The position numbers were made by a program, and so were the translations under genes. The notes under the pieces were generated by a model. It was not told the origin of the DNA. It worked only from the letters and a program-made list of their open reading frames with translations, and made no database searches. Below, in pieces: positions 997 to 41,287 of a DNA stretch of 64,000 nucleotides. Every line of letters starts with the position of its first letter. Position 1 is the first letter of the stretch. Origin of the DNA: an uncultured Clostridia bacterium (GTDB lineage: Bacteria > Bacillota > Clostridia > TANB77 > CAG-508); contig CALWZW010000002.1 of assembly GCA_944386135.1 (NCBI GenBank), positions 31,926 through 95,925 of the forward strand, in the 5' to 3' direction.

Positions 997-1569
997 CTAT
1001 ACATTAATTACTGCATCAGTATTTTTATTGTTTGTGATATATGAATAATGTTCTTTTACTTCTTCATTTAAAGCTTCACTATCAACTAAATTTACACCGT
1101 TTCCCATTTTCATTCTAATATCTATTGGAAATATTTCATTTATTGAAGTTTGATAATATGAGCCATCCTTCGGAATTTGATAAGTTACGACAGCGTTATC
1201 TTTTATAATAAATCTATATGGCATAGAGCTCCCACCATTATGTATTAAATTTCCATCTTGGACATAATAACTTTCAATTAATGCCCAGACATATACATAA
1301 GTTTCATCTCCTTTCTTCCTTATTCCAAGTCTTTCAATATCGGTAAATACTTTGAAATCACTAATATTTGTATCCGACTCAGCATTTTTTGTATCAGTAA
1401 AATAATGTGGCTCTTCTAAACTAACAAGATATTCCTCTACTTTGTCATATAATTCATCTTTTCCAAATACTATTCTTTCATTTGCAAGATAATAGAAAAT
1501 CATAATTGAAATTAATATAACAATAAGCAGTACAAGTAACAAAATTGCTTTTTTCATACCATTACTCAT
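997..1569 (-). CDS. hypothetical membrane-anchored protein (N-terminal TM helix)
   Basis: 190 aa ORF with a hydrophobic N-terminus (AILLLVLLIVILISIMIFYYL). No recognisable domain. Confidence 0.4.
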   Translation of the reverse strand: MSNGMKKAILLLVLLIVILISIMIFYYLANERIVFGKDELYDKVEEYLVSLEEPHYFTDTKNAESDTNISDFKVFTDIERLGIRKKGDETYVYVWALIESYYVQDGNLIHNGGSSMPYRFIIKDNAVVTYQIPKDGSYYQTSINEIFPIDIRMKMGNGVNLVDSEALNEEVKEHYSYITNNKNTDAVINV

Positions 1570-1726
1570 AATTTTATACTTCTCCTTTTTGTTTTATTAT
1601 AACATATTAATTTCAAACTTTCCCTAATCTTAATTAAATCTTAATCTTTTATGTCCTAGTAAATATATAACAACTTTTTTATTTTACTTCATATAATATA
1701 GTTATCTAAATTTAAAAGGAGGTTTT

Positions 1727-2788
1727 ATGATTAAGAAATTCGCATATATAATTGGATTAGCAGTTTTTTTAATGCTTTTTTTATCTTCTACATGTTTTGC
1801 CCTTTCTCCCTCTTCTGATACAATTTATGAAGGGATAGATGTAAGTGACTGGCAAGGAAATATAAATTACAGTGAAGTTAAAGCTTCTGGCATTGATATT
1901 GTATACATAAAAGCTAGTCAAGGAACTAATATTACAGACCCATACTTTAAAACAAACTATAATAATGCTAAGATGAATGACCTTAAAGTAGGGCTTTATC
2001 ACTTTCTAACTGCTCGAACTGAAGAAGAAGCGATAGAAGAAGCGGAATATTTTTCTTCTGTAATTTCTGGTACTTCGCCAGACTGTAAACTTGCAATGGA
2101 CTTTGAAAACTTTGGAAATTTAACTAAAGATGAGATAAACAATATATCAACTGCATTTTTAGAAAAAGTTAAAGCTTTGACTAACAAAGATGTCGTAATC
2201 TATAGCGATGCTTCTAATGCAAGAAATATATTTGATTCAAAACTTGCAAATAGTTATCCTTTATGGATTGCAGAATATGATGTATCTTCACCTTCAAGTA
2301 ATGTTAATTGGAACTCTTGGGTTGGTTTTCAATACACTGATACAGGCACTATTTCTGGAATTAGAGGTTTTGTAGATAGAGATAAATTTACTGATGATAT
2401 TCTTTTAGGTTCAAATGATGTTATTACAACTACTCCAAATAATAAAAATAAAATAGAATATTATACTGTAAGAAGCGGAAATACATTAAGTAGAATAGCT
2501 TCTGAATTTGGAACAACTGTTAATGAAATTGCTGGTTTGAATAGTATTAGAAATGTTAATTTGATTTATCCTGGAGAAGTTCTTAAAATAGATGTAACTA
2601 GAAATTTAGATGAGATACAAAGTAATGTATATGAGACAAATCATATTGTATACACTATAAAACGTGGTGATACTTTAACTGCTATTGCCAATAGATTTGG
2701 TATTTCTATCGAAAGTATTGTTAGATTGAATAATATAAAAAATCCTAACCTTATTTATGCAGGAGAAAGACTTAGAATAAATAATTAA
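1727..2788 (+). CDS. secreted GH25 muramidase (lysozyme) with two C-terminal LysM domains
   Basis: Signal peptide. GIDVSDWQGNINY..VYIKASQG..GLYHF is the GH25 Lyc fold. Two LysM repeats follow (YTVRSGNTLSRIASEFG..., YTIKRGDTLTAIANRFG...). An AGGAGG RBS sits upstream. Confidence 0.8.
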   Translation: MIKKFAYIIGLAVFLMLFLSSTCFALSPSSDTIYEGIDVSDWQGNINYSEVKASGIDIVYIKASQGTNITDPYFKTNYNNAKMNDLKVGLYHFLTARTEEEAIEEAEYFSSVISGTSPDCKLAMDFENFGNLTKDEINNISTAFLEKVKALTNKDVVIYSDASNARNIFDSKLANSYPLWIAEYDVSSPSSNVNWNSWVGFQYTDTGTISGIRGFVDRDKFTDDILLGSNDVITTTPNNKNKIEYYTVRSGNTLSRIASEFGTTVNEIAGLNSIRNVNLIYPGEVLKIDVTRNLDEIQSNVYETNHIVYTIKRGDTLTAIANRFGISIESIVRLNNIKNPNLIYAGERLRINN

Positions 2789-2799
2789 TTAATCAAAAA

Positions 2800-2965
2800 G
2801 TAGAAAAATGGCACAATATTTCCGCCTACCTTTTGGAGTAATATTTATAATTTTATCGTTCTTTGCTGGCTTCGCCACTCGCCTAGGGTCTCTCCCACTC
2901 GGGGAGCCTCCCTGCGCAGAACTTCTAAAATTAGAAATATTACTCCAAAACGGCTAGGTTGTGCT
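2800..2965. repeat. MITE-like palindromic repeat element, copy 1 (about 24 bp terminal inverted repeats TTTTGGAGTAATATTTNTAATTTT around a GC-rich core)
   Basis: About 150 bp that are nearly identical to the reverse complement of 39235-39400. It has internal TIRs and lies in a convergent intergenic region. Confidence 0.7.
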
Positions 2966-3004
2966 TATTTATTGAGTAGAAAAATGACACAAAGTTATAC
3001 TACA

Positions 3005-3170
3005 TTAAAATAAAAAAGAAAAGAAGTTATTTAATTTTAAGGAAGCCCGCGCAGCGAACAACGGAGCTGAAAGCGACGGCGAATGGTGCAGGCTCCTTAT
3101 AAATTTTATTTAGAAGCCTGCACCAGTAAGGGCAACGTAAAAATTCAATAACTTCTTTTCTTTATGCACT
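3005..3170. repeat. palindromic repeat element. The 18 bp inverted repeat AAAAGAAAAGAAGTTATT / AATAACTTCTTTTCTTT flanks a GC-rich core with the GGTGCAGGCT...AGCCTGCACC hairpin.
   Basis: Inverted repeats are seen directly. The right half recurs at 5865-5925. The element is bracketed by a GTAGAAAAATGACACAAA inverted repeat at 2977-2994 and 3177-3195. Confidence 0.6.
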
Positions 3171-3203
3171 ACATAAGATTTGTGTCATTTTTCTTACAAT
3201 ATT

Positions 3204-4448
3204 CTAACTCTTTTTTCTTCTTATAATCCAATTTTTCTCACACTTGATAGGTAAATGCATTTTTACCAACTGTCCTTTTCTTCCAGGACTTATGCTCTCT
3301 ATTTCTCTATCATTCTCTGCATCCCATAATCTATCTATTTTAAATTTAAACACATCAATAGTTCCTGGAATTATAATCTCTAAAGTATCTCCAACAAATA
3401 ACTTATTCTTTATCTCGATAATAGATTTATCACTATCGTATTCTAGTATTTTTCCTCCAAACTCATAATCTGGATTATATTGTTTTCCTTCAAACTCTTG
3501 GAAATCTTTATTATTCCTATCATTAAAATAAAATGTAGTTAAGCTTCTTGTTTTAACTTTATCTATCTCAGTTAAATATCTTGTATAATCATATTTTTCT
3601 GGATCTTTTATATAATCATCAATTGCATTTCTATATGCGTTTACTATACTTGCTAAATAGTATTCTGTCTTAAGTCTTCCTTCTATTTTAAGACTATCTA
3701 CTCCCATTTCTATTATATCTGGTATTTCTTTTACAAGGCATAAATCTTTTGATGAAAATATATAGGTTCCCTTTTCATCATATTCAATAGGCATCAAGTT
3801 TCCTGGATTATTTTTTTCTTCTGCATATACATTATATGCCCACCTACAACTTTGAGCACAATCCCCTAAATTTGCACTTCTTGAAGCTAAAAAATCACTT
3901 AAGAAGCATCTTCCTGAATATCCAAAGCACAATGCTCCATGAACAAAAATCTCTGTCTCGAGACCCATAGGAGTACCATTTATTATATCTTTTATCTGCT
4001 CTTTATTTAATTCTCTAGAAAGAATAACCCTCTTTGCACCATTTTTGTACCAAAACATTGCTGAATGAGCAGATACTACATTTGCTTGTGTACTAATATG
4101 TATATCTACATCAGGAGCTTCTTCTTTTATAACTTCTAAAACTCCTCCATCAGATAAAATAATTCCATCTACTTTAAGTTTGTTTAACATTCTTGCTTGT
4201 TTTTTTATTTCTTCATAATTTTCGTCTAATGCATATATATTTATTGCCGCATATACCTTTTTTCCAATTTCATGTGCATAGATAATAGTTTTTTCTAAAT
4301 CATCATCGTCAACTTCTGCTCTACTTCTTAAAGATAAAGAAGCGGTTCCGCAATATACAGCATCTGCTCCATAAAGAAATGCTATTTTTGCTTTTTCAAA
4401 TGAACCTGCTGGTGCAAGTAATTCTGGTTTTCTCATATATAATCTCAT
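3204..4448 (-). CDS. peptidase U32 family protein (PrtC/YrrN-YrrO-like; likely tRNA hydroxylation related)
   Basis: 414 aa. PELLAPAGSFEKAKIAFLYGADAVYCG...IYALDENYEE carries the U32 signature. Confidence 0.8.
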   Translation of the reverse strand: MRLYMRKPELLAPAGSFEKAKIAFLYGADAVYCGTASLSLRSRAEVDDDDLEKTIIYAHEIGKKVYAAINIYALDENYEEIKKQARMLNKLKVDGIILSDGGVLEVIKEEAPDVDIHISTQANVVSAHSAMFWYKNGAKRVILSRELNKEQIKDIINGTPMGLETEIFVHGALCFGYSGRCFLSDFLASRSANLGDCAQSCRWAYNVYAEEKNNPGNLMPIEYDEKGTYIFSSKDLCLVKEIPDIIEMGVDSLKIEGRLKTEYYLASIVNAYRNAIDDYIKDPEKYDYTRYLTEIDKVKTRSLTTFYFNDRNNKDFQEFEGKQYNPDYEFGGKILEYDSDKSIIEIKNKLFVGDTLEIIIPGTIDVFKFKIDRLWDAENDREIESISPGRKGQLVKMHLPIKCEKNWIIRRKKS

Positions 4449-4679
4449 TCCTTCCTAAAGGCACAAATCTGGTTGGAAAAGTTTTCAACCTTATCTCCTT
4501 TTTATTTGCAATTTATTCTAAATATTATATAATATTAGATACTAAAATTCAATAGTTGTATTTCTAAGGATTTCCAATAAGTTTTTAATTAAATATTAAG
4601 AATTAAGTCTCTTTACTTTTCTTTTAATTTCTGGTATGATTTTATAGTATCTATAATTTTAAATATACTTAATTAGAAA

Positions 4680-5231
4680 GTGATGGTTATGAATATATCA
4701 AAAAATATAACAAAATTTCAAAAACTCGCTATTTACTTTTTCATATATGCTTTTTTAGGCTGGATAGGTGAAGAAATATATTGTATAATTGCTACTCATG
4801 AATTTGTAAATAGGGGATTTTTATTCGGCCCAATCTGCCCTATATATGGATATGGAGCTCTTATTTTGATACTATGTTTTGGAAACTATAAAAAGAAACC
4901 TGTAAAACTATTTTTGTTATCTGCAGTTGTTTTCAGTGTTTTTGAGTATATAACAGATTTCTTTTTACAAGCTCTATTTGCTACTAGATGGTGGGATTAT
5001 ACAGGATATTTCTTAAATATAAATGGAAGAATAACATTAAGTTTCAGTATTCTTTGGGGATTTGCTAGTTTAATAATCATAAAAATAGTTCATCCTTTTG
5101 TAACAAAAGTAGTTGGAAAAATTTTAGTAAAAATACCTTTTAAACTCCAACATATTATTGTAGATAGTTTACTTATAATTTTAGTATTAGATACTTTAAT
5201 ATCTTCAATTATGTATTTAGAAATATTTTAA
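4680..5231 (+). CDS. polytopic membrane protein (DUF1113 / putative ABC-transporter type IV family)
   Basis: 183 aa, multi-TM. YAFLGWIGEEIY is the motif of this conserved clostridial family. Confidence 0.5.
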   Translation: MMVMNISKNITKFQKLAIYFFIYAFLGWIGEEIYCIIATHEFVNRGFLFGPICPIYGYGALILILCFGNYKKKPVKLFLLSAVVFSVFEYITDFFLQALFATRWWDYTGYFLNINGRITLSFSILWGFASLIIIKIVHPFVTKVVGKILVKIPFKLQHIIVDSLLIILVLDTLISSIMYLEIF

Positions 5232-5233
5232 AA

Positions 5234-5818
5234 TTATATTACTTTACTTATGATAAGTCCATCCCCAATTTCTAAAATTTCTGTTTCAAGTCTCGGGTCA
5301 TCTGAGGCTTCTTTTATATATTCTCTTAAGTTTCTAACTGCTGTTCTTTGCTTATGTTTATTATAATCGCTCATAACATATCCTTTATACAAAATATTAT
5401 CAGCCACAATAATAGAGCCTTTTTTAGACATTCTTAAGGCTTCATTTAAAAAAAATGGATATTTGCCTTTTGCTGCATCGATAAAAATCATGTCATATTT
5501 CTTATCTAAAGTAGGCAAAATTTCTACTGCATCTCCTATTAATACATTTATTTTTTCTTCTAAGCCTAAACTTTTGATATTTTCTATTGCTTCTTTTGCT
5601 CTTTCTTCATCTCTTTCAATTGTATCAATTGTTCCTTTTTTTGATAAAAATTTTGAAAAACATATAGAAGAGTATCCAACAGCAGTACCAATTTCTAAGA
5701 TATTATCTTTATTTGAATTCAAAAATATTTTATTCAAATATTCTAATGTATCATCCATTATAATTGGTATATGTTCTTCTATAGCTTTTTTCTTTATTTC
5801 TTGAAACTTTACTTCATC
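5234..5818 (-). CDS. class I SAM-dependent O-methyltransferase (family 3, YrrM/TrmR-like)
   Basis: ILEIGTAVGYSS..IDTIERDEE..YDMIFIDAAKGKY. The start is probably the second ATG at 5818, because the first ATG at 5845 overlaps the AAAGGA RBS. Confidence 0.75.
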   Translation of the reverse strand, partial: DEVKFQEIKKKAIEEHIPIIMDDTLEYLNKIFLNSNKDNILEIGTAVGYSSICFSKFLSKKGTIDTIERDEERAKEAIENIKSLGLEEKINVLIGDAVEILPTLDKKYDMIFIDAAKGKYPFFLNEALRMSKKGSIIVADNILYKGYVMSDYNKHKQRTAVRNLREYIKEASDDPRLETEILEIGDGLIISKVI

Positions 5819-5864
5819 CATATATAGTATTCCTTTCAAAATCAATTTCTAATAAAGTTACTAT

Positions 5865-5925
5865 TATACAAAGTGGTGCAGGCTTCTGATAAACTTACTT
5901 TGAAGCCTGCACCAATAATGGCAAT
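5865..5925. repeat. hairpin repeat GGTGCAGGCTTC-N15-GAAGCCTGCACC followed by AATAACTTCTTTTCTTTAT (copy of the right half of the 3005-3170 element)
   Basis: Perfect 12 bp stem. Shared with 3078-3165. Confidence 0.65.
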
Positions 5926-5959
5926 AATAAAATTAAATAACTTCTTTTCTTTATTCTAA

Positions 5960-7774
5960 CTACTTACTTCTGTTTGCACGTTCACGCTCTTTGCTATCAA
6001 GAATTTTCTTTCTTAAACGTATATTTTGAGGTGTAACTTCAACTAATTCATCGTCTTGGATAAACTCTATTGCTTTTTCTAATGACATTTGAATTGGTGG
6101 AACTAAATGTAAAGCATCATCAGAACCAGAGGCTCTAGTATTTGTCAAATGTTTTTCTTTACATACATTAATTGCCAAATCTTCACTTCTAGAATTCAAT
6201 CCAACTATCATACCTTCATAAACTTCAGTTCCTGGTCCTATGAATAAATCTCCTTTATCTTGAGCATTATATAATCCATAAGTTACAGCTTTTCCAGCTT
6301 CAAATGCTACAATAGTTCCTCTTGACCTTGATGATATATCACCTTTATATGGCTCATAAGAATCAAAAATATGATTCATTGTTCCATTTCCCTTAGTATC
6401 TGTCATAAACTCTGAGCGATATCCAATTAAGCCTCTTGCAGGAATTTTAAATTCTATTTTAGTATGACCATCTTCTGCTGGTTCCATATTTGTCATTTCT
6501 GCTTTTCTCTTTCCTAATTTTTCAATAACATTTCCAACAAATTCGTCTGGAACATTTACAACAAGTCTTTCTATTGGTTCGCATTTTACTCCATTTATTT
6601 CTTTTATAATAACTTTTGGGCGAGAAACTAAAAGCTCAAATCCTTCTCTTCTCATTGTTTCAATTAACACTGATAAATGTAATTCCCCTCGACCAGCTAC
6701 TTCAAAAGAATCTGGTTGTGCTGTTTCTTTAACACGTAAACTTACATTTCTTTCAAGTTCTTTGAATAATCTATCTCTTATATGTCTAGAGGTAACAAAT
6801 TCTCCTTCGCGACCAGCAAAGGGTCCGTTATTAACACTAAATGTCATTGTTACTGTAGGCTCATCAATATCTACAAAGTCAATTTTTTCAACATGTTCTG
6901 GGTCACATATTGTTTCTCCAATATTAATATCAGCTATACCTGAAAATTCTATAATATCTCCTGCTTTTGCTTCTTCAACCTCAACTTTATCTAAGCCTCT
7001 ATGTGTATATACTTTAGCAATTTTTCCATTTGCAACTTTTCCGTCTTTTTTGCAAACTGCAACATTCATTCCAGGTCTCAAGGCTCCTCTTTCTAATCTA
7101 CCTACTGCAATTCTTCCAACATAGTCATCATAATCAATATTTGAAACTAACATTTGAGTTGGTCCATCTTCATCACAATCTGGTGGAGTTATTGTATTAA
7201 TTATTGTTTTGAATAAGCAATCCATTCCTCCATCTTTATCATTCATGTTAAGCTTTGCTATACCAAGTTTTGCAGAAGTATAAACAACTGGGAAATCTAA
7301 TTGTTCATCATTTGCATTTAGCTCAATAAATAGTTCTAATACTTCATCAACAACTTTGGCTGGATTAGAACCTGGTCTATCTATTTTATTGATTACTACT
7401 ATTGGCTTTAAATTTAAAGCTAATGATTTTTTTAGTACCTCTCTTGTTTGAGGCATAGCTCCTTCAAATGCATCAACAAGTAATAGCACTCCGTCAACCG
7501 TTTTTAAAACTCTTTCAACTTCTCCTCCAAAGTCTGCATGTCCAGGAGTATCAACTATATTTATCTTAACACCATCATACATTACAGATGTATTTTTAGC
7601 AAGAATGGTTATTCCTCTTTCTTTCTCTATATCGTTTGAGTCCATAACTCTTTCTGCAACTTGCTCATTTTCTCTAAAAATATGGCTTTGTTTTAAAAGT
7701 TCATCCACAAGTGTTGTTTTTCCATGGTCTACGTGTGCAATTATTGCTATATTTCTAATATTTTTGTTGTTCAT
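5960..7774 (-). CDS. typA: translational GTPase TypA/BipA
   Basis: 604 aa. IAIIAHVDHGKTTLVD G1 motif and EF-G-like domain order. Confidence 0.92.
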   Translation of the reverse strand: MNNKNIRNIAIIAHVDHGKTTLVDELLKQSHIFRENEQVAERVMDSNDIEKERGITILAKNTSVMYDGVKINIVDTPGHADFGGEVERVLKTVDGVLLLVDAFEGAMPQTREVLKKSLALNLKPIVVINKIDRPGSNPAKVVDEVLELFIELNANDEQLDFPVVYTSAKLGIAKLNMNDKDGGMDCLFKTIINTITPPDCDEDGPTQMLVSNIDYDDYVGRIAVGRLERGALRPGMNVAVCKKDGKVANGKIAKVYTHRGLDKVEVEEAKAGDIIEFSGIADINIGETICDPEHVEKIDFVDIDEPTVTMTFSVNNGPFAGREGEFVTSRHIRDRLFKELERNVSLRVKETAQPDSFEVAGRGELHLSVLIETMRREGFELLVSRPKVIIKEINGVKCEPIERLVVNVPDEFVGNVIEKLGKRKAEMTNMEPAEDGHTKIEFKIPARGLIGYRSEFMTDTKGNGTMNHIFDSYEPYKGDISSRSRGTIVAFEAGKAVTYGLYNAQDKGDLFIGPGTEVYEGMIVGLNSRSEDLAINVCKEKHLTNTRASGSDDALHLVPPIQMSLEKAIEFIQDDELVEVTPQNIRLRKKILDSKERERANRSK

Positions 7775-7845
7775 ATTTTATTTCATTCCCTTCTTAAATT
7801 GTATAGCTACGATATATCTATTTTTCACTAACTATTTATTATATC

Positions 7846-8442
7846 CTAAATTTCTTCATTTGTCAATCTAATCATCTCGTCCATAACTTGCTTACTTAAG
7901 CTGTCCAAGGTTTCTTTATCACTTTTCTTATCTTTGTACTCGCTAAAATCCATAGGTTTACCTATATTTATTTTAACTTTTGTAAAAGGTCTGTATTTAG
8001 TTTTAGATTGTATTCCTATTGGAATTATTGGTGTTCCAGACATCAAGCTCATAAGTACTGCACCATTTTGTATTTTTCTATTCTTTTTTATACCATTTCT
8101 TGTACCTTCTGCAAAAATTAAAACAATATGATTATCTTTTAAAACTTTCACACTATCTTTCAAAAGCTTTAAGTCCTGTTTTCCTCTTCTTACAGGCAAA
8201 GCATGTACTTTTACAGCAAGCCATTTTATAAAACCATTTATGAACATTTCCTCTTTAGCTAAAACATATATGTCATTTCTTTTAAGTGCTGCAATTATTG
8301 TTGGTGGATCCCAGTTACTTATATGATTTGGGCATAATATATAAGGCTTATCCTTTTCTATATTTTCTTGTCCAACTACTTTTACTCTATACAATAATAA
8401 TGTTGTAATCCTCAAAACAAATTTAATTATACTTCTAATCAT
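7846..8442 (-). CDS. plsC: 1-acyl-sn-glycerol-3-phosphate acyltransferase
   Basis: NHISNWD (HX4D) and FAEGTR motifs. Overlaps cmk by 8 bp. Confidence 0.8.
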   Translation of the reverse strand: MIRSIIKFVLRITTLLLYRVKVVGQENIEKDKPYILCPNHISNWDPPTIIAALKRNDIYVLAKEEMFINGFIKWLAVKVHALPVRRGKQDLKLLKDSVKVLKDNHIVLIFAEGTRNGIKKNRKIQNGAVLMSLMSGTPIIPIGIQSKTKYRPFTKVKINIGKPMDFSEYKDKKSDKETLDSLSKQVMDEMIRLTNEEI

Positions 8443-10031: not shown

Positions 10032-11504
10032 TTATTTTTCTATAAGTGCAAAGTGAAATACATAATTATTATAAGCAGTATTAAAATCATTTTGACTAAC
10101 TACTTCTATATCATATTTTTCTTTAAGTTCATTTAGTATTCTGTAATCTCCTGTATCTAATATCCAAATTCTTCCATGATAATCTTTTAATTCATCTAAA
10201 TTATATATTATTTCCATATTAGGTCCAAAAGCCTTATATGCCTCTTCAACATCCCAAAATAAATAGTTATAAAAATATTGTCTATTTTCACTATATCTAG
10301 TACCTACAACAAATCCTGAATATTCTGAATTACAATATAAAATTGCATCATCTTTCTCAATATTATCCTCCATAAATTCAATTACCGAATTATTGCTAGA
10401 ATCATAATTTTCCTTTATAAAAAGTATATTATCAATCAATGATATTATGAATATTGTAGAACATATCATAATTGTAATATAAGTTTTTTTCTCCTTTGAC
10501 ATAAAAAACGCAATAAAGAAGATTAATAATCCAGTAATCACAATTAAATATCTATCTAATAATATTACAGATTGCATTATCAGTGATATAAGAAGAGCTG
10601 CTAGTATAATTGTCAAATAAATTCCTATTGCTAATATTGCTGGTCTTATTTCGTTCTTTTCTTTTTTCTCTTTGTAAATCATTCTAGCAATATATATGTA
10701 TATAACTAATCCTAACGCTAATCCCACATATTTATTTACTTTTGAGCAAAATTGCACATTTATAACTTGTATCAATGTTCCGTGGGAATGTTAAACTAAT
10801 CCAAAATCCTTCCGAAACATTAGTCATTTGTGTAATTAAACACATAAGCCATGGTATATACAATATAATTTGAAGTACTGCACAAATTATAAATTTTATA
10901 AGTTCCTTTTTCTTTTCCTTGAGATTTTTTAACAAATATATAAAAAGTAATAAATTTATAAGTCCTGAAGCCATCAAAGCATAATAATGAGTATATGCTC
11001 CTGCTAAACTAAAAATTCCAAATATAATTAAGTTTTTATTAGTAAATTTACCTTTATATAATCTATAAGCATATATTGATGTAATTGTTACAAATAACAT
11101 TGCCCAAGAATACATTCTTATTTCACTTGCATACTTAGTTATTCCCGGTAGAAATAAAATTAAAAATGAAAATAGTAGCCCTATTTTTTCTCCAAAATCT
11201 TTTCTAATATGTGTAAATCCTAATATAGATAAAATTGCTATCGGTACTATTGAAAATAATCTATATATTAAGATGTTTGAGCCAAAAAAGATATTTAATA
11301 CTTTTAACATAAAATAATATAGTATTGGATGTACATCATTACCACCAATTGACCATATTTCACTAAAACTATGTTTAACTATTGAAACCGTATAACTTTC
11401 ATCAAACCAAATATTTGAATGAAATGCCCCTAAACTTATGAAAATTATTCCGAGCTATGACTATTGCTATATGTATTTTTCTTATATTAAATTTTGACAT
11501 TTAA
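10032..11504 (-). pseudogene. ArnT/PMT-like (GT83/GT39 family) membrane glycosyltransferase, broken by at least two frameshifts
   Basis: Three consecutive minus-strand reading frames (11504 to about 11455, then 11310-10732, then 10775-10032) join into one roughly 490 aa multi-TM protein (IIFISLGAFHSNIWFDESYTV...MLKVLNIFFG...YSWAMLF...). The shifts are at about 11455 and about 10760. Confidence 0.6.
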
Positions 11505-15681: not shown

Positions 15682-16606
15682 TTATTTTTCTCCAATTACT
15701 TCTATCTCAAGTTCAATATTTTTTCCAGTTTTATCATATACTGTACTTTTTACATGTTCTATTAGCTTTAAGATATCAGAAGCTGTCGCATTTCCATCAT
15801 TTACAATAAAACCAGCATGTTTTTCAGAGACCTTTGCTCCGCCTATCTTTTTACCTTTTAAACCACATTCATCTATTAATTTGGCTGTAATAAAATCTTC
15901 TCCTCTTTTAAAAGTACTTCCAGCAGAAGGTTTATCATAAGGCTGTTTCTCCATGCGTAATTTTGCATATTCTTTCATCCTATTTTCTATTTCACTCTTT
16001 CTACCTTTTTTCAGTTTCAATGTGCTTTCTAATATTATGTATTTTTCAGAAGCAAATATGCTTTTTCTATATTCAAATTTATGTTCACTCAGGTTTAATT
16101 TGTGTGTACCTCCAGAATAATCTAATATTAAAGTTGAATATACGATATCTTTCATTTCTTTGCCGTAAGCACCAGCATTCATTTTTATTGCTCCTCCTAT
16201 TGTTCCTGGGATTCCGAGAAGCAAATTCGAAACCTTCTATTTGCAAATTTAGCAATTTTTGTGAAATTTCAGCATTTTTATTTCCACTACCAACTGTTAC
16301 AAAAATATCTTCCCCATTTTCTTCTATTTCAAACTTAGTAATCTCTATTTTGCAAACAATTCCTCTTATTCCTTTATCTGTCACTAAAACATTACTTCCG
16401 TTTCCTAGAATAAAAATTGGCAAATTTTCTCTTTGTGAAATTTCTAAAATATATTTTAACTTTTCTGCTGTATCTACTTTAACATAAATATCTGCACATC
16501 CACCAGTTTTAAACGATGTATGTTTTGACATTGGCTCATTTAGAAGTACGTTTTCCTTGCCAAGCTTTTCTTCTAATAATTTTATGATATCCATACTCTC
16601 CTCCAT
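15682..16606 (-). CDS. murB: UDP-N-acetylenolpyruvoylglucosamine reductase MurB, with an apparent frameshift near 16225
   Basis: The N-terminal FAD-binding part (16085-16606) and the C-terminal part (15682-16224, GIPGTIGGAIKMNAGAYG...STFKRG) are in different frames. The T-homopolymer GAATTTGCTTCTC at the junction suggests an indel. Confidence 0.8.
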
Positions 16607-31300: not shown

Positions 31301-32372
31301 AAGGTATTGGTTTTTCTGGATTTACAAAGCATTCAAAAGTATCTATAATTTCACCGTTTTTTATTTTTATAGCACCAAATTCAGTGATTTTTTCTGTTCT
31401 AAATGAAAGTCCTGTTGTCTCTATATCTAATACGCAATATTCTGTATCTAAATTTTGGTTTTTAGGGTTATATACACTTGTTTGTCCATCTGGAACAAGG
31501 TACGCTTCGACTCCATATAGTACTTTTATATCTCCTTTATTATCTTCCACTACATGATTAGCTTTAGGAAAAGATTGTACTACTCCATGGTCTGTAATTG
31601 CAATAGCCTTCATCCCCCATTTTCTGGCGCGATTTATAAGATCTTCTACTGGTGTTACTCCATCCATTTGGCTCATTTGAGTATGCATATGAAGTTCTAC
31701 TCTTTTTACTTCACTTCTGTCCATTCTTGTCATCTCATTTTTAGCTTCTGCTTCCATAACTACATTTGCCATAATAGTTACTTCTTTTGAAAATGGGTCA
31801 AATTGAGCATTTCCAGAGACAGTAACTCTAGGTGCAGAATTTATTCTATCTAATACTTTATCCTTTACATCTGGTTCTATGAAAGCTTTGCAAGTTATTG
31901 TACAAGAACCATCATATACATTTATCATTAGAAGGAATTTACCAGACTTAAGTTCTTTTAATTCCTGTTTTATTATTTTTCCACAGATAACTACTTTTCC
32001 ACTATCCATGTTTATATCTTTTACTTTTACAACTTTGTCTGTAATTTTGGCTTTTTTGTTTCCTATTATTACTGGAGTGTACTCCTCTTGCTTTTCTTCT
32101 CCATTTTCTGTTGAATTTTTAGTTTGTTTGTGTGTTTTTGTTTCATGGACATCTACGTTTATCTCAACGTCTTGGACTCTAAATTTACTTTTTAGATAAA
32201 ATTCAAATGCTAATTTTTCACCAATTTGTATTTTGTTTGAAGATTTTAAATCTATTTCTAGTTTATTTGATTTTTTAAAAATACTTACATTTACTATTTC
32301 ACATTCTTGGATATTTCCATTTGCTTCATAGTCTTTAAATACGTCCTTTACTTTCTTTGCTTCATTTGTCAT
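28389..32372 (-). CDS. polC: DNA polymerase III alpha subunit, Gram-positive PolC type
   Basis: 1327 aa. PHP domain (HMHTQMS), inserted DnaQ-like exonuclease (YCVLDIETTGLS), C4 zinc module (CPKC..CPKC), polymerase core and C-terminal HhH/OB. Confidence 0.95.
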   Translation of the reverse strand: MTNEAKKVKDVFKDYEANGNIQECEIVNVSIFKKSNKLEIDLKSSNKIQIGEKLAFEFYLKSKFRVQDVEINVDVHETKTHKQTKNSTENGEEKQEEYTPVIIGNKKAKITDKVVKVKDINMDSGKVVICGKIIKQELKELKSGKFLLMINVYDGSCTITCKAFIEPDVKDKVLDRINSAPRVTVSGNAQFDPFSKEVTIMANVVMEAEAKNEMTRMDRSEVKRVELHMHTQMSQMDGVTPVEDLINRARKWGMKAIAITDHGVVQSFPKANHVVEDNKGDIKVLYGVEAYLVPDGQTSVYNPKNQNLDTEYCVLDIETTGLSFRTEKITEFGAIKIKNGEIIDTFECFVNPEKPIPYEVIKVTHITDDMVRDAETIEQVLPKFLEFIGDDVLVAHNANFDIGFIRHFAELQGYKLNNTYIDTLALARDMFPDYKKHKLGVIADNLGIRVDVAHRALDDVKTLVKVFEVMIKKLKEKGVTTVNEIDNAYKDELNLKHLPTYHAVILTKNYVGLKNLYKLISFSHLDYFYKKPKIPRSVYRKYSEGLIIGSACDRGELYQAILEGLSEEKIEEIASFYDYLEIQPLGNNEYLIRNGTMENRDGLMEINRKIVALGEKLGKPVVATCDVHFMDPEDEIYRRILMAGQKFDDADMQAPLYLRTTEEMLDEFAYLGREKAYEVVVTNTNKIADMCEPISPISKEKCPPHIEGCEKTIEDIAMNRAKELYGDPLPEIVETRLKKELDSIIRNGFSVMYIIAQKLVWKSNEDGYLVGSRGSVGSSLAAYMTGITEVNALKPHYRCPKCKYSDFSGHGVKNGFDLPDANCPKCGTKLVKDGVDIPFETFLGFNGDKEPDIDLNFSGEYQTKAHKYAEVILGKGTTFKAGTIGTIAEKTAYGYVKNYFEERNIHTSSAEIERLAKGCTGVKRTTGQHPGGVIVVPQGREIYEFCPVQHPADDPNSDIITTHFDYHSIDKNLLKFDMLGHDDPTVIRMLQDITNVDPKSIPLDDKATMSIFSSTEALGVRPEQIDSKVGTFGVPEFGTRFVREMLVETLPKTFEELIRISGLSHGTNVWTNNAQDLIKSGTATLAEAICTRDDIMIYLINKGLPAQNSFKIMESVRKGKGLSEEQEALMREHDVPDWYIDSCKKIEYMFPKAHAVAYVTMAFRIAWFKVHMPLAYYATFFSIRADEFDSEIMIFGKSKVKEKMADIKRLGNDASAKDKNMYSILELVLEMYERGLNFLPIDLYKSDAIKFKVEDGSIRPPLNSIAGMGQIAAQGIQAARENGEFISKQDIKKRAKVGDSTIALLEKFGCLEGMSETNQMSLFDSMF

Positions 32373-32520: not shown

Positions 32521-34065
32521 TTATCTTGCTTTGATACTAAATGGTGATGTTGCTGTTCCAGAACCTGTTTCTCCAATCGTAACGGATGATCGATCAATTT
32601 CAACTACGGGGCGCACCGCAGAGCTAATGCTGTAGTTGTAGCTGCCCGAGTAATACAAATGGTTGGCGTCCACAGTACCACCGCCCACAAAGAACATCCT
32701 GAAATTCGCAATGAGACTGTTAAAGCCGACGCAGCGCGAAGCGAGCCAATACGTTGTCGAGTTCTCTGGGACAAACATACTATAATATGTTGCTCCTACA
32801 TTGCTTCTTGTCATGTTGTATGAATAATATGTCCATTTTCCTTTTAATGTCGTAGCATGTGATGTCCCTGTTACATAATTTGTTTGGTCACTTAAGTCTA
32901 AATCTTTTCCATATATTTCATTTACTGAGCCTGTTAATTCATCTGCAAATATATTTGGATAATATGTATTTGATGGCGAATATTCTCTTCCATAATTTGA
33001 ATATCCGTTTTTATTATATGTTGACACTTCTTCTATATCTCTTATTTTTAAACTTCTTCCTACTGCACTTAAGCTACTATTACTATACATTGCTTTACAC
33101 GCATCATCTAATAGTTTTACTCCATTATTATATCCATTTGCTCCACTTAAGTAAAATCCTGTATTTGCTGTTGTATCCGATATTAATGTAATTGTAGTAT
33201 CATCTACAAACATTATTCTCCATTTTAAACTTGTTATTGTTGAAAAACTTTTGTTACTACTTCCATTATATGTTCCTTGCGATGTAAAGCTTCCACTTAC
33301 TGGTGTATAATCTATATACTCTCCTATGCTTGCTTTTAACTCTTCTGTTGGCAATCCATTATCCTGTGTTCCTTGTTTTGTTATTGCACTTGTTGTTTGA
33401 TATCCTGCTCTATCTGATACTATGACTCTTATATAATAATTCTTTCCTACTTCTAAGTTTGTATATGTATATGAACATGTTCCTTCTGTACTCGCTTCTG
33501 TTCTTACTGTCGTAAAATCTTCATCATTCTCTGTTCCTATATTATCTACACTACTCATTCCGGTTAGCTCATCATAATATACTTGATATACATACCCTTC
33601 TTGCACAGTTACTATTATATCTTTACTTTCTTCATTTGGCACTGCTGATTTTATCCATGACTCATTCTCCATATCTGCTGCCATACTTGTTACTGTTGTC
33701 GTTCTTCCTGCTAAGCTATCTGCTAGTATAATACTATGTACTAATTGCTCTATCTGCTCTTTATATTGCTGATACTTGTAGTCATCTACTGCTTCTTCTG
33801 TTCCGACTATTATCCCTTCATCTCCTGTGATTTGGCTTACTGCAACTCCTACTAGTATGACAAGTAATATTACTGTAACTAGCAATGCAATTAATGTAAT
33901 TCCTCTTTCTTCCCTTGTTTTTTTGAATTCGTATGATTTTTGTGTACTATTAATATACCCTTTAATTAGGGCATAATGGTTTGGTCTGACTTTGATTTTC
34001 ATTTTTGGTTTGGTTTCCTCCTTGTTCTTTAGTTTAGTTTTTTGTGTCTTTTCGAAATCTGCCAA
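32521..34065 (-). CDS. large pilin-like surface protein. A 54 aa leader precedes a non-canonical type IV prepilin-like segment G-ITLIALLVTVILLV (no Glu+5). TTG start.
   Basis: 514 aa. The start codon TTG at 34063-34065 lies inside a 39 bp palindrome arm. The hydrophobic helix resembles a minor-pilin (GspK/PilX-like) N-terminus. The remainder is Thr/Ser/Tyr/Asn-rich. Confidence 0.5.
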   Translation of the reverse strand: MADFEKTQKTKLKNKEETKPKMKIKVRPNHYALIKGYINSTQKSYEFKKTREERGITLIALLVTVILLVILVGVAVSQITGDEGIIVGTEEAVDDYKYQQYKEQIEQLVHSIILADSLAGRTTTVTSMAADMENESWIKSAVPNEESKDIIVTVQEGYVYQVYYDELTGMSSVDNIGTENDEDFTTVRTEASTEGTCSYTYTNLEVGKNYYIRVIVSDRAGYQTTSAITKQGTQDNGLPTEELKASIGEYIDYTPVSGSFTSQGTYNGSSNKSFSTITSLKWRIMFVDDTTITLISDTTANTGFYLSGANGYNNGVKLLDDACKAMYSNSSLSAVGRSLKIRDIEEVSTYNKNGYSNYGREYSPSNTYYPNIFADELTGSVNEIYGKDLDLSDQTNYVTGTSHATTLKGKWTYYSYNMTRSNVGATYYSMFVPENSTTYWLASRCVGFNSLIANFRMFFVGGGTVDANHLYYSGSYNYSISSAVRPVVEIDRSSVTIGETGSGTATSPFSIKAR

Positions 34066-34175
34066 TAGGGACGCATCTAAAATGGCAGGTTTTCGAAAAA
34101 TAAGTTTATTAGATTTTAATTTTAATCAAAACCTGCCATTTTAGATGCGTCCCTATTGGCAGATTTCGTTATTAA
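34063..34175. repeat. REPIN-like inverted doublet: two 39 bp arms AAATCTGCCAATAGGGACGCATCTAAAATGGCAGGTTTT, perfect, separated by 35 bp
   Basis: Perfect inverted repeat. It overlaps the start codon of the 32521-34065 gene. Confidence 0.8.
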
Positions 34176-34194
34176 CTTTGTATAGTTTTTATCA

Positions 34195-34392
34195 CTCTAG
34201 TGAAGAATAAATATAAATTGATGAAATTAGCGCCTGCAAGTATTTCGAATTAGAAATTGTTAATTTTCAAAACGAGTAAGATTCACGTTTGCCGTGAAAA
34301 AGGCTTGTTTTGAAAATTACTACAATTTCTATGAAGAAATACGTAGCTTAAGCTAATTGAAGAATATTTATATTTATTCTTCACTAGAGTAC
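34195..34392. repeat. nested palindrome: outer 24 bp inverted repeat CTCTAGTGAAGAATAAATATAAAT flanking about 145 bp, which contain a second imperfect 28 bp inverted repeat and a central TCACG-N5-CGTGA hairpin
   Basis: Inverted repeats seen directly. Lies between the divergent pilin-like gene and the XRE regulator. Confidence 0.75.
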
Positions 34393-34782
34393 AGTATATT
34401 TAAAATTATTCTATACATTATACACAAAAGCTAACTCTTGCTTTGTGCTTCTCTCCTTATGGTTAAAAACTAAATGGTAAAAGTCAAAACCAAACAAAAC
34501 CAAAACCATATTAGTTTCCACCCATAAAGAGAGAAATATGTTGAAATACCTTAAATGTAGCTTACAAACAATTACTTGTTCTATCTACAAATTGCCTCAA
34601 TATTTTTAGTCATATTACGACTATATTAATTATTATAGTCATAATATAACTAATTGTCAATAGTTAAATTTTGATTATTGTAAAATATTTCTGTATGTAT
34701 TTTTGTGCAATTATTTTTAGGAGTTATTTTAGAGACTATTTATAAAATTTATAGTCTTTAATTATCGTTAATGGAGGGTGTT

Positions 34783-35007
34783 ATGATTAGATTAAAAGAT
34801 TTAAGAGAGGATAGAGATTTATCCCAGAATGATATTGCAAGAATGTTAAATATTTCCCAGACAAATTATAGTAAATATGAACTTAATAAAATAAATATTC
34901 CACTTGAAACTTTAAAAAAATTAGCGTTTTTTTTCGATACAAGTATAGATTATATTTTAGGCATAACAAATGTAATTACTCCATATCCAAGAGCAAAAAA
35001 TAATTAA
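34783..35007 (+). CDS. XRE-family (Cro/C1-type HTH) transcriptional regulator
   Basis: GGAGGGTG RBS, then ATG at 34783. LSQNDIARMLNISQTNYSKYE is the HTH_3 motif. Confidence 0.75.
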   Translation: MIRLKDLREDRDLSQNDIARMLNISQTNYSKYELNKINIPLETLKKLAFFFDTSIDYILGITNVITPYPRAKNN

Positions 35008-37000: not shown

Positions 37001-37474
37001 TTAATAATCTAATGTTACTGTTGGATTGTTACCAACTGTATGATATACTACACCTTTATAATTTATACCTTTCAAATAATATATAACATGGCTTTCAACA
37101 TTTATGATGTATGAATTTTCAGACAAAGCTTCGTAGTCATCCCCATAATTTAAAGTCAAGTTATCCAATTGACTTAAATCTATTGTGTAATACTCATTTC
37201 CATCGTTTCCAGAAAGATCTGATATAATATTTCTCAATTCATTTTTCGTATATGGATTACCTACTACTGGTAATTCTTCATGTTCAACATAGTATGCAGC
37301 AATCCTATCATTTAATGCCTCTATATCGTTCTCTAGTTTTGTAAGTCTTGAAATTTGAGTTGAGTCATATGCATTTGTTGCAAGTGTCGCAGTTATCATT
37401 ACCATTAATAATACTGTTACAACTAATGTTATCATTGTTATTCCATTTTCATTTTTTACATTATTTTTTATCAT
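37001..37474 (-). CDS. pilin-like protein with a non-canonical type IV prepilin-like N-terminus (MIKNNVKNENG-ITMITLVVTVLLMVMITATLATNAY)
   Basis: 157 aa. An 11 aa leader ends in Gly. A 25 aa hydrophobic helix ends in NAY (compare pilin PQY/PNY). No Glu+5. Confidence 0.5.
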   Translation of the reverse strand: MIKNNVKNENGITMITLVVTVLLMVMITATLATNAYDSTQISRLTKLENDIEALNDRIAAYYVEHEELPVVGNPYTKNELRNIISDLSGNDGNEYYTIDLSQLDNLTLNYGDDYEALSENSYIINVESHVIYYLKGINYKGVVYHTVGNNPTVTLDY

Positions 37475-37523: not shown

Positions 37524-38238
37524 TTAATTTATTGCAATATAATTTTTTAATATTTTGTACATTTTTATTTTCATATTACATATTTTACTTGCTTTTATTA
37601 CTATTATCCAAATATATATTAAAACAAATATGTATGATATGTTTTGGTAAAAAATACTTATAGATACGATAACAAAAGTTAAAACAAATGCACCTCCCTT
37701 TGAAATAACATTTACTATTTGAAGTGCTTTTAGTTTACCAAGAAAAATATACAATATATTTTTTAAAATTCTCCCTCCATCTAGTGGATATATAGGCATC
37801 ATATTAAATATAAATATAAGTATATTTACATATATTAACGTGCTTATGCCTATTTTTAATATGTACTCCAAAATTGTGAATATAAATATAAAAATTAAGT
37901 TTATTAAAGGTCCAGCTAAAACTATTATTATCTTTTTCACTGTTAAAAGATTCGCTTTTAGTATTTTCTTGTTATAATTTTTAGTGTCAACTCTAAAAGA
38001 TACACCAAATCCTATAGGCATTACATCTAATTTTTGAACTTTAAATCCTAGCATAATTCCGAGTTAATATATGACCACATTCGTGTAAGAATGCAAAAAA
38101 CATCAGAAGTAAATATATATCTATTTCTCCACTTAGACAAAAAAATAAGACAAATATAAAAACTTTTAAATTAAACCTTATTTGCAACTCTCTACCTCTT
38201 TTCTTTAAAAGTTTAATATTAGTCTCGGATTTATGCAT
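37524..38238 (-). CDS. M50 site-2 protease, SpoIVFB-like, with an apparent frameshift near 38045
   Basis: HECGH (HExxH) is in the 38041-38238 frame. NMMPIYPLDGGRIL (LDG motif) is in the 37524-38054 frame. Confidence 0.65.
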
Positions 38239-40224: not shown

Positions 40225-41287
40225 TTATCTCATCATATATAAATTCTCTCCAGGATATGCAATTTTTATATTATCCATTTCTAATGCTTTTACTACAATT
40301 AAATTAACTCTTGTTTTAAATGTAAGAAAATCATCATAGTTAACTATTCTTGTATATAAATATATTCTTAATTTTAATGAAGCATCATCAATATTATCAA
40401 AATATACTCTAACTGAATCATCTATTACATCTTCGTCAGCTTCTAAAACACTTTTTAGCATAACTGTTACATTTTCTATTATTTGGCTCTTTGTTTCAAG
40501 CGGTAAGCTAACAGTAATATCTACTCTTCTTTTTGTCATCCTAGAATAATTTACTACTTCACTACTTGTTATTGTAGAATTTTGTACAGTTACTATTGTA
40601 TCATCTATTGCCCTTATTCTTGTACATCTGAATTTTACCTCTGTAACTGTTCCTTCATAAGTTCCAATTTTGACATAGTCTCCCACAATGAAAGGTTTAT
40701 CTGAAACTATTGCCATTCCACTCATTATATTTTCCGCTACATCTTGAGCAGCAAGAGCAATTACCACACTAGTTAGTCCGAAGTCCTGTAATTATACTAT
40801 TTATATCATATCCAAGTTCTGAAATTATTATAAATACAGCTATTACATATACTCCAACTTTTCCAGATTTGCTTATAGTATTTACTAATGTATCATCTCC
40901 ATGTATTTTATGACTTTCTTTAATCTTTCTTATTAATTTAGATTCTGGAGAAATTAAGTTTGATATTGTCCCTGCTACATTCCAAATTATTAATATTCTT
41001 ATTAATGTATTGCATACTCTAAACCAATCTTCTGGCAATTTTAACACAAGTACTGCTATATATATTCCTAGAAATAAGAAAATTCTTTTAATTGATTTGT
41101 ATAATGGATGTTTTTTTATATTTATTTGGTCTTTTTCTTTTAGTTTAAATATTTTTATTACTAAAAATGAAAGAAATGAACTTATCATAATAGATAATAT
41201 GACTATAACTACTGCAATTATGATATCTAATATTCTATCTTCTTTTATTTCTGTAAATGTTTTCATCCAGCTGTTTAATTGCTCCAT
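40225..41287 (-). CDS. MscS-family mechanosensitive channel, with an apparent frameshift near 40770-40800
   Basis: TM domain (40769-41287) and MscS beta/cytoplasmic domain (40225-40767, IVSDKPFIVGDYVKIG..GTVTEV) are in different frames. Confidence 0.7.

Follow-up and report, generated by a model that had tools for sequence, protein, structure and literature searches.

A diversity-generating retroelement target with a pilin-like N-terminal signal in an uncultured Clostridia bacterium

The locus described here raises the question of what kind of protein is encoded by a gene that resembles a pilin at its N-terminus, and whether a large palindrome at its 5' end controls its translation. The gene was found as an open reading frame (ORF) on the minus strand, positions 32521-34065, of a 64,000-nt stretch of DNA (the window) from an uncultured Clostridia bacterium (assembly GCA_944386135.1, contig CALWZW010000002.1, forward-strand positions 31,926 to 95,925). 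A first-pass annotation, made from the sequence of the window, had described a large surface protein with a minor-pilin-like helix and a start codon buried in an inverted repeat; the intact ORF was found as described, and the main feature of the gene, a C-terminal variable region (VR) of a diversity-generating retroelement (DGR), had been overlooked. The gene product is very probably a ligand-binding adhesin or receptor on the surface of this low-GC bacterium, with a binding site that is hypermutated by a DGR acting in trans. Related loci and proteins are denoted below by L and P numbers, respectively, and coordinates are given in Table 1.

The variable region and its template

The VR was compared with a template repeat (TR) located at 3168-3310 (143 nt) of L013, a related metagenome contig from another sample, which was obtained among the contigs encoding the same reverse transcriptase (RT), P0121, as L005. 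The VR of the window differed from this TR at 16 positions, all of them template adenines (16 of the 40 A and none of the 103 non-A positions; hypergeometric P = 1e-10). Against the same TR, 18 mismatches at A and none elsewhere were found in the VR of L004a, and 16 at A plus one at T in that of L001, while the copies of L006, L007 and L010 also showed differences at non-A positions. The TR reads ...AAC AAC AAC AAC AAC AGC AAT AGC TAT GCG GTG CGC CCC GTAG, and NNC codons stand in the VR copies opposite the first seven codons of this stretch (AAC five times, AGC and AAT). Since differences restricted to template adenines are the diagnostic signature of mutagenic retrohoming, the gene can be firmly assigned, from the pattern of its substitutions, as a DGR target.

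The variable block is sharply delimited, and copies from other samples that are elsewhere nearly the same vary almost exclusively within it. The window and L007 were identical at 136 of the 137 nt before the VR and at 76 of the 80 nt after it, against 99 of 146 nt (68%) in the VR block. Boundary sequences were invariant at the DNA level even among diverged paralogues, as were the non-A positions of the VR even where the flanks had diverged. The VR has a GC content of 55%, compared with 32% for the rest of the gene, and its GC-rich 3' end, GCGGTGCGCCCCGTAG, a candidate initiation of mutagenic homology (IMH) site, was identical in all VR copies and in the TR, with divergence starting immediately after it; no cruciform was identified downstream. 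Recombination among paralogues, or ordinary diversifying selection without any retroelement, is a highly improbable source of this hypervariability. Several paralogous copies or fragments do occur per genome (two in L004, a reverse-strand fragment in L005), and the non-A differences of L006, L007 and L010 would agree with such an origin, but in three independent copies the differences coincide with template adenines in 16 of 16, 16 of 17 and 18 of 18 cases, and this, the sharp block edges with their invariant non-A positions, and a matching TR that directly adjoins RT and Avd genes all speak against it. The reverse-strand fragment of L005 (9827-10006) was also considered as a TR and rejected as a paralogue remnant, since it departs from the VR at bases other than A as well.

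In L013 the TR starts 27 nt after the stop codon of the P0121 RT gene, with bAvd and MutS_I-like genes upstream, and in L005 genes for a MutS_I-like protein, bAvd and a small RT lie 5 kb downstream of the homologue. These cassettes, which combine a MutS-like gene with Avd and a small RT and from which the target is distant, resemble the MSL-avd-RT-TR arrangement with remote targets ('architecture D') described in a survey of DGRs (Wu et al. 2018, PMC5758913). No matches to the VR boundary were obtained in the viral contigs scanned. In the metagenome scan a single relevant locus was retrieved, L010, the four other matches being unrelated high-GC DNA. In L010 (JGI OERC01001172.1, 260-480, minus strand) the VR is joined exactly at the IMH-like boundary to the post-TR sequence of L013, and this junction truncates the homologous protein; either the assembly has fused VR and TR into a chimera or a recombination has really taken place.

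For the target protein, more than 574 homologues were retrieved, all without annotation, and the C-terminal two-thirds of the query (68%) are conserved in hundreds of them. The C-terminal domain (aa 222-493) was modelled by AlphaFold 2 (AF2) with a predicted local distance difference test score (pLDDT) above 95, and the N-domain was poorly modelled. Scans of the target and of the 157-aa protein treated in the next section against Pfam and NCBIfam gave sub-threshold matches only. In full-length relatives a leader and a hydrophobic helix are followed by an N-domain, then by several Ig/FN3 repeats and finally by the variable C-domain, and fn3 and Ig domains were detected in 61 of 76 homologues. 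With respect to the long gene of L001, which is syntenic with that of the window and lies beside polC, the window copy has lost 1.59 kb of Ig/FN3 repeats: in blastn, query positions 517-1171 matched L001 4270-4913 and positions 1166-2300 matched L001 6500-7637.

Several other genes of the window are split into two overlapping or adjacent ORFs (37524-38238, 15682-16606, 40225-41287, 10032-11310 and 55876-57859). The M50 protease and a PMT-like glycosyltransferase have Pfam support, and the remaining pairs (MurB-like, MscS-like and CpaF-like ATPase) were assigned by eye. This suggests that the assembly is prone to indels, or that these genes are pseudogenes. With an indel-prone assembly, trust in the 1.59-kb deletion is limited, and the short form of the gene needs verification.

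Table 1. Features of the target gene, its leader and other genes of the window (positions of the window; AF2, AlphaFold 2; IMH, initiation of mutagenic homology; SD, Shine-Dalgarno; TR, template repeat; UTR, untranslated region; VR, variable region)
Feature	Position	Strand	Basis or remark
DGR target coding sequence, including stop codon	32521..34002	-	493 aa from ATG 34002
Leader peptide M1-G34, Lys/Arg-rich, ending in E-E-R-G	33901..34002	-	sequence and family
Pilin-like hydrophobic helix I35-I58, ITLIALLVTVILLVILVGVAVSQI, 24 residues, Ala at +5	33829..33900	-	sequence; AF2
Junction of 1.59-kb internal deletion (Ig/FN3 stalk repeats) relative to L001 long gene	33530..33535	-	blastn
Conserved C-terminal, probably ligand-binding domain, ~aa 222-493	32524..33339	-	homologues and AF2
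DGR variable region, aa 419-467, 143 nt	32604..32746	-	template-repeat comparison
GC-rich VR 3' end GCGGTGCGCCCCGTAG, candidate IMH	32604..32619	-	TR homology ends here
In-frame ORF extension to TTG 34065, non-coding, part of 5' UTR	34003..34065	-	no SD before TTG
Shine-Dalgarno GGAGG, 14 nt before ATG	34017..34021	-	direct sequence reading
Palindrome (hairpin 2), perfect 41-nt arms, 34-nt loop, in 5' UTR	34053..34168	-	arms 34053-34093, 34128-34168
197-nt quasi-palindromic element, perfect 25-nt terminal inverted repeats, inserted in 5' UTR	34194..34390	-	between the two hairpins
Conserved leader stem-loop (hairpin 1), G/U-rich apical loop GGUUUUGGUUUUGUUUGGUUUUGAC	34446..34536	-	predicted pairing and comparison
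Consensus sigma-70-type promoter TTGACA-17-TATAAT	34632..34660	-	12/12 matches
Xre-type helix-turn-helix regulator, 78 aa, divergent partner of target	34771..35007	+	Pfam HTH_3, E = 1.7e-14
Second gene, 157 aa, signal NENG/ITMITLVVTV, widespread pilin-like N-terminal module	37001..37474	-	
Very divergent Tad/type-IV-filament-like cluster	47711-60419	-	no member reaches Pfam/NCBIfam threshold
Cluster ATPase, apparently frameshift-split	55876-56478 + 56450-57859	-	CpaF E = 1.6e-4; TadA family E = 1e-6
Cluster polytopic membrane protein, 695 aa	53771-55858	-	
Cluster ParA/AAA_31-like proteins (two)	57885-59440	-	
Cluster protein, possibly CpaB-like	59529-60419	-	
Cluster pilin-like small proteins	50816-51463, 51489-52013, 52620-53063, 53088-53750, perhaps 50024-50548	-	

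The pilin-like N-terminal signal

The first-pass annotation had likened the sequence after the EERG motif to the N-terminus of a minor pilin without Glu at +5. The motif was confirmed, with Ala at +5, and the likeness held for the signal itself: G(-1) and I-T-L-I (+1 to +4) are invariant in the 62 of 62 family members with an N-terminus, which also carry Ala(+5) in 61 and Glu(-3) in 59 cases, and which have short leaders of 4-34 aa (median 13), rich in Lys. A helix was predicted by AF2 for residues 34-58 of the target, and weak profile matches related it to type IV pilin N-termini among PDB sequences. The likeness did not extend to the Pfam N_methyl family (PF07963), for which the window protein scored 12.7 bits against a cut-off of 21.2 and no match was obtained in 76 members at E <= 0.01 or in 50 members at E <= 0.001 (the corresponding NCBIfam domain is TIGR02532), nor to the presence of canonical pilus genes, none of which was found in the window or in 188 kb of related loci.

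The same pattern had been noticed in a second gene of the window (37001-37474), and this also proved correct; its product has Thr at +5, and the two proteins carry the only such motifs in a six-frame translation of the window. Alignment of the target with the family of the 157-aa protein by hhalign gave a probability of 93% over 29 residues and nothing further, and only sub-threshold GspG and PRK10332 matches were found for the 157-aa protein in NCBIfam. This protein belongs to a small orthologous family adjoining rpsF in relatives; in the window and in L017 its gene is located between the M50 protease gene and rpsF. In L020 (GCA_947624655.1, 10001-12586) three other genes come after that of the homologue, for a 176-aa protein, for a sortase and for a 282-aa protein.

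With a profile of the 157-aa family, 2,079 clusters (50% identity) were matched, 1,038 of them at E <= 1e-10, always at the N-terminus, in proteins of 112-972 aa. Sampled members carry GLUG, RCC1, BspA-type leucine-rich repeat, DUF285, RHS or FGE-sulfatase domains, and in P0273 the module is fused to the start of the target's own DGR-target C-terminal domain. The consensus of the sampled module family, with the slash marking the G(-1)/+1 boundary, is M-(K/N-rich, 6-19 aa)-K-G/I-T-L-(I/V)-(S/T/A)-L. G(-1) is present in 29 of 32 members of the 157-aa family (the rest have Ala) and in 43 of 48 of the wider module family; position +5 is Thr in 29 of the 32, is Ser, Thr or Ala in the wider family, and was never Glu in these two or in the target family. 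The structure model of the 157-aa paralogue suggests a pilin-like fold, in which one continuous helix extends from the membrane segment to the globular part. A literature search on the motif 'GITLIAL' returned no paper.

As for assembly genes, it had been stated that no pil or com operon lies in the window. This is valid for canonical genes: no A24 prepilin peptidase, GspE motif or Glu5 (GFTLIE) pilin was detected in the 64-kb window or in 188 kb of related loci. A divergent Tad/CpaF-like cluster is nevertheless present at about 47.7-60.4 kb (Table 1), four or five small proteins of which start with MENA(S/A/V)(K/G)AL followed by a hydrophobic helix; it is the sole candidate filament machinery in the window. 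The homologous genes with readable upstream sequence (8 of 8) stand alone with an Xre-type regulator, outside pilus operons.

In the surface-protein reading preferred here, the Lys-rich leader and the hydrophobic helix would insert the protein in the membrane with its N-terminus inside and its C-terminus outside, and a prepilin-type peptidase would probably cut after Gly34. The Ig/FN3 repeats, most of which are deleted in the window copy, would form a stalk, and the C-terminal domain would display the variable residues outward. Expression would depend on the consensus promoter, a structured 5' untranslated region (UTR) and the divergently encoded Xre-type repressor. Several results weigh against this reading. 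No RT, Avd or TR was found in the 64-kb window, the TR used coming from another sample, so that the target is remote from its element, or an orphan if the element has been lost. Foldseek searches with the whole 493-aa model returned FN3/Ig matches only, FN3 dominating them, and did not reveal the C-type-lectin fold usual in DGR variable proteins, and profile searches gave no sequence match of the C-terminal domain to solved DGR proteins. A truncated FN3 domain is left in the window copy, the short form of which could be an assembly collapse or a decaying allele. The N_methyl miss, together with the lack of a prepilin peptidase in the window and the related loci, would count against the cleavage proposed after Gly34.

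The N-terminus admits two other accounts. According to the first, which is possible but rather doubtful, the protein is a true modular type IV pilin without Glu5, processed by the peptidase and placed at the filament tip, where the first subunit needs no Glu5, so as to display the DGR-diversified domain; in that case the related modules in their thousands, and the 157-aa protein with them, would be alternative cap or minor pilins. The class-III-like signal with its invariant Gly(-1) and short basic leaders, the weak profile matches to pilin N-termini and the CpaF/TadA-like ATPase cluster with its four or five pilin-like small proteins in the same window are in agreement with it, and both tip subunits without Glu5 and modular pilins onto which adhesion domains have been grafted are well documented (PMC10191384). 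However, no member passes N_methyl, the common P0002-type homologues have only the helix before the Ig repeats and no pilin head, the genes at all eight loci stand alone with their own regulator, and neither an A24 peptidase nor a GspE-type ATPase nor a Glu5 pilin was seen in the 64 + 188 kb; long Ig/FN3 stalks, moreover, suit a membrane-anchored protein that spans the cell wall. Filament assembly, for example as a Glu5-less cap subunit, is thus possible but unsupported by gene context.

The other account, that of an ordinary uncleaved signal anchor or of a Sec signal peptide with its cleavage site behind the helix (A-V-S57 being one candidate), with the pilin likeness being ancestral or due to chance, is likewise considered unlikely. 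The lack of Glu5, of an N_methyl match and of a pilus context would favour it, as would the A-x-S motif after the hydrophobic segment and the stalk-like Ig/FN3 repeats typical of anchored adhesins. But strict conservation of E-x-G-I-T-L-I-A-L among proteins with only 40-60% identity elsewhere, and of such a motif across unrelated ectodomains in at least 2,000 clusters, is not a property of generic anchors and signal peptides; no conserved A-x-A-type site follows the helix in the homologues, and the unbroken helix modelled in the 157-aa paralogue is as in pilins. A plain signal anchor appears unlikely mainly because the residues recognised by prepilin peptidases are strictly conserved across unrelated ectodomains, and cleavage after Gly34 by a class-III-type prepilin peptidase is our best guess from these residues. 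It is a long shot that E-x-G/I-T-L-I-(A/S/T)-L marks a large, unannotated Clostridia class of Glu5-less type IV pilin modules serving as interchangeable cap subunits, each with an adhesin domain of its own and each filament being primed by one of them, with a DGR-rewritten tip in the present case and a filament perhaps built by the Tad-like machinery at 47.7-60.4 kb. If it were so, the bacterium would possess a pilus with a hypervariable, antibody-like tip.

Start codon, leader elements and regulator

The TTG at 34065, taken by the first-pass annotation as the start codon of a protein with a 54-aa leader, has no ribosome-binding site and is merely the mechanical first start of the ORF. The homologues begin with MK(I/L/T)KV(K/R)PN at the equivalent of ATG 34002, and in 6 of the 8 homologous loci an in-frame stop lies 11-16 codons 5' of the conserved ATG. 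These starts and stops fix the ATG, and the protein therefore has 493 aa and a leader of 34 residues (M1-G34). The extension 34003..34065 is open only in loci bearing the palindrome, and the upstream TTG is restricted to two of the three such loci, the window and L004a; the third, L001, has a stop. GGAGG was found at a similar spacing in L002, L003, L004a, L004b and L010, and a weaker AAAGGAAA takes its place in L001 and L005.

The inverted repeat is perfect, as reported, although its arms measure 41 and not 39 nt, and the TTG is indeed inside one of them. It occurs once within the window and in 3 of the 8 homologous leaders (window, L001 and L004a), the other five being without it. For its RNA a fold of -77.7 kcal/mol (z = -13.8) is predicted. 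Compensatory substitutions were observed in both arms across the three copies, one stem position being A-T, G-C or T-A. The end of the palindrome is 51 nt upstream of the start codon and 32 nt upstream of the Shine-Dalgarno (SD) sequence, and for this reason it cannot sequester the ribosome-binding region, as had been proposed. A translational switch that hides the start codon and the ribosome-binding region is, accordingly, very improbable. The high stability of the hairpin, the mechanical TTG within one arm and the stem kept intact at three loci would be expected of such a switch, but the true ATG and the SD both lie outside the hairpin, which is missing in five of eight leaders and matches no specific RNA family: no Rfam match was found over the window at the gathering threshold, and a permissive scan of the leader gave only generic hairpin (microRNA precursor) models. 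The palindrome is read instead as an optional 116-nt insertion in a long 5' UTR, real, structurally constrained and dispensable. A perfect 41-bp duplex would suit RNase III processing or mRNA stabilisation.

From the position of the promoter a 5' UTR of about 620 nt is implied; similar promoters were found at the equivalent relative place in L001, L002 and L004. Hairpin 1 was present in the 7 of 7 leaders that reach that far (other copies in L001 4167-4256, L002 9870-9958, L003, L004, with two, and L005), with 33 predicted pairs, 8 of them with compensatory changes, and a stem of about 27 bp. It had no Rfam match, and its loop had no matches in the viral contigs scanned. In 6 of 7 loci this loop is complementary to the AAACCAAAC-rich SD-AUG region (-19 to -25 kcal/mol), a pairing that is energetically plausible but only modestly better than in shuffled controls (z -0.8 to -3.6) and that is absent in L005.

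The 197-nt element inserted between the two hairpins is absent from L001 and L002. In L003 (5705-5901) it has the same leader position and the opposite orientation, its inner 147 nt being 95% identical but inverted, and the same inner part is 94% identical at an unrelated intergenic site of L005 (310-510). The core is conserved and the terminal repeats vary among copies, those of the L005 copy being different. Both a mobile palindromic repeat and an invertible switch are conceivable for the element, the former being at least as likely as an inverton, because a copy with other terminal repeats occurs at an unrelated site. Parallels among leaders with small repeats are the Correia-type miniature inverted-repeat transposable elements (MITEs) of Neisseria and the invertible leader switch of cwpV in Clostridioides difficile. 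Like these, the present leader has a short element with terminal inverted repeats between the promoter and a surface-protein ORF, here one element in both orientations and also at an unrelated site; unlike in those systems, no transposase or recombinase was found linked to it.

A divergent helix-turn-helix gene precedes the homologue in L001-L005 as well, that is, in all other loci with a readable upstream gene. No record was matched in a look-up of the helix-turn-helix protein of the window. Between this gene and the target, overlapping the -10 box of the target promoter, an imperfect palindrome with 24-nt arms (34606-34653, 88% complementary) is likely an operator; different repeats occupy the equivalent place in other loci.

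Genomic setting and comparison with known systems

The window has a GC content of 29% and carries a Gram-positive polC, rpsF-ssb-rpsR and a SpoIVFB-like M50 protease with an M23 peptidase. The single relative retrieved in the genome-collection scan was an uncultured Clostridia metagenome-assembled genome. In a related genome polC follows directly after rpsR, with no cassette in between, and the unit of regulator, leader and target occupies differing chromosomal places in different genomes. L004 has two complete cassettes in tandem (1355-4935 and 5123-7977) in one genome; the 41-nt palindrome is present in one leader and not in the other.

The target shares with the DGR variable proteins Mtd of Bordetella phage, TvpA of Treponema denticola and LdtA of Legionella a C-terminal VR, substitutions only at adenines of the TR and a GC-rich 3' boundary. 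It differs from known DGR targets in its C-terminal domain, which has no Pfam match, is neither DUF1566 nor FGE-sulfatase and could not be matched to the C-type-lectin fold in the whole-model search; in its Glu5-less pilin-like N-terminus, in place of a lipoprotein, Tat or phage-tail context; and in that each target has its own Xre regulator and structured leader.

PilB and PilC of Streptococcus sanguinis have canonical class III signals, and their genes are in the pil locus. They are part of the type IVa pilus system of that species (PMC10191384) and, like the present family, combine a pilin-type N-terminal signal with grafted adhesion domains in a monoderm bacterium; unlike them, the present family has no Glu5 and no N_methyl match, and its genes are scattered, with no linked assembly genes. 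The cap minor pilins GspK/PulK, PilK and ComGG also lack Glu5, which is compatible with a tip position (PMC10191384), but they are single-copy core components encoded in the machinery operon, whereas at least 2,000 Glu5-less clusters with varied cargo domains were found here. In Bacteroides, adhesive parts of the type V pili are reported to be diversified by a DGR (bioRxiv 10.1101/2024.11.15.621889). Both cases concern a DGR-diversified surface adhesin, maybe pilus-associated, in a probable gut bacterium (here inferred from sample types), and they differ in that the Bacteroides pili are of type V, have lipoprotein-type precursors and belong to another phylum, while the pilus link is only putative here.

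Pilin-type domains among DGR targets are mentioned only in passing in two surveys (PMC11661182, PMC6642488). DGR variable proteins as such are already a known kind. In the libraries and literature searched, however, the combination of a DGR target with a Glu5-less pilin-like signal, the very large module family with this signal and no Pfam model, and the cassette of regulator and structured leader all appear to be undescribed.

To our knowledge, no system of targeted protein hypermutation other than DGRs is known in prokaryotes, and the roles of their cellular targets in gut Firmicutes are, as far as we know, poorly understood. From this locus a family of DGR targets, with unannotated homologues numbering more than 570, is tied to a known trans-acting DGR architecture and placed, very probably, on the cell surface; each copy travels together with an Xre regulator of its own and a conserved structured leader, as one cassette. 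Through its signal the target is linked to a set of pilin-like, Glu5-less surface proteins that comprises at least 2,000 clusters (50% identity) and has no Pfam model. Since their N_methyl scores are sub-threshold, these proteins are likely missed by pilin finders built on the Glu5-containing N-terminal methylation motif. If type IV filament machinery does process or assemble these modules, the catalogue of modular pilins of monoderm gut bacteria would grow considerably, and the present gene would provide a testable case of a retroelement-diversified pilus tip.

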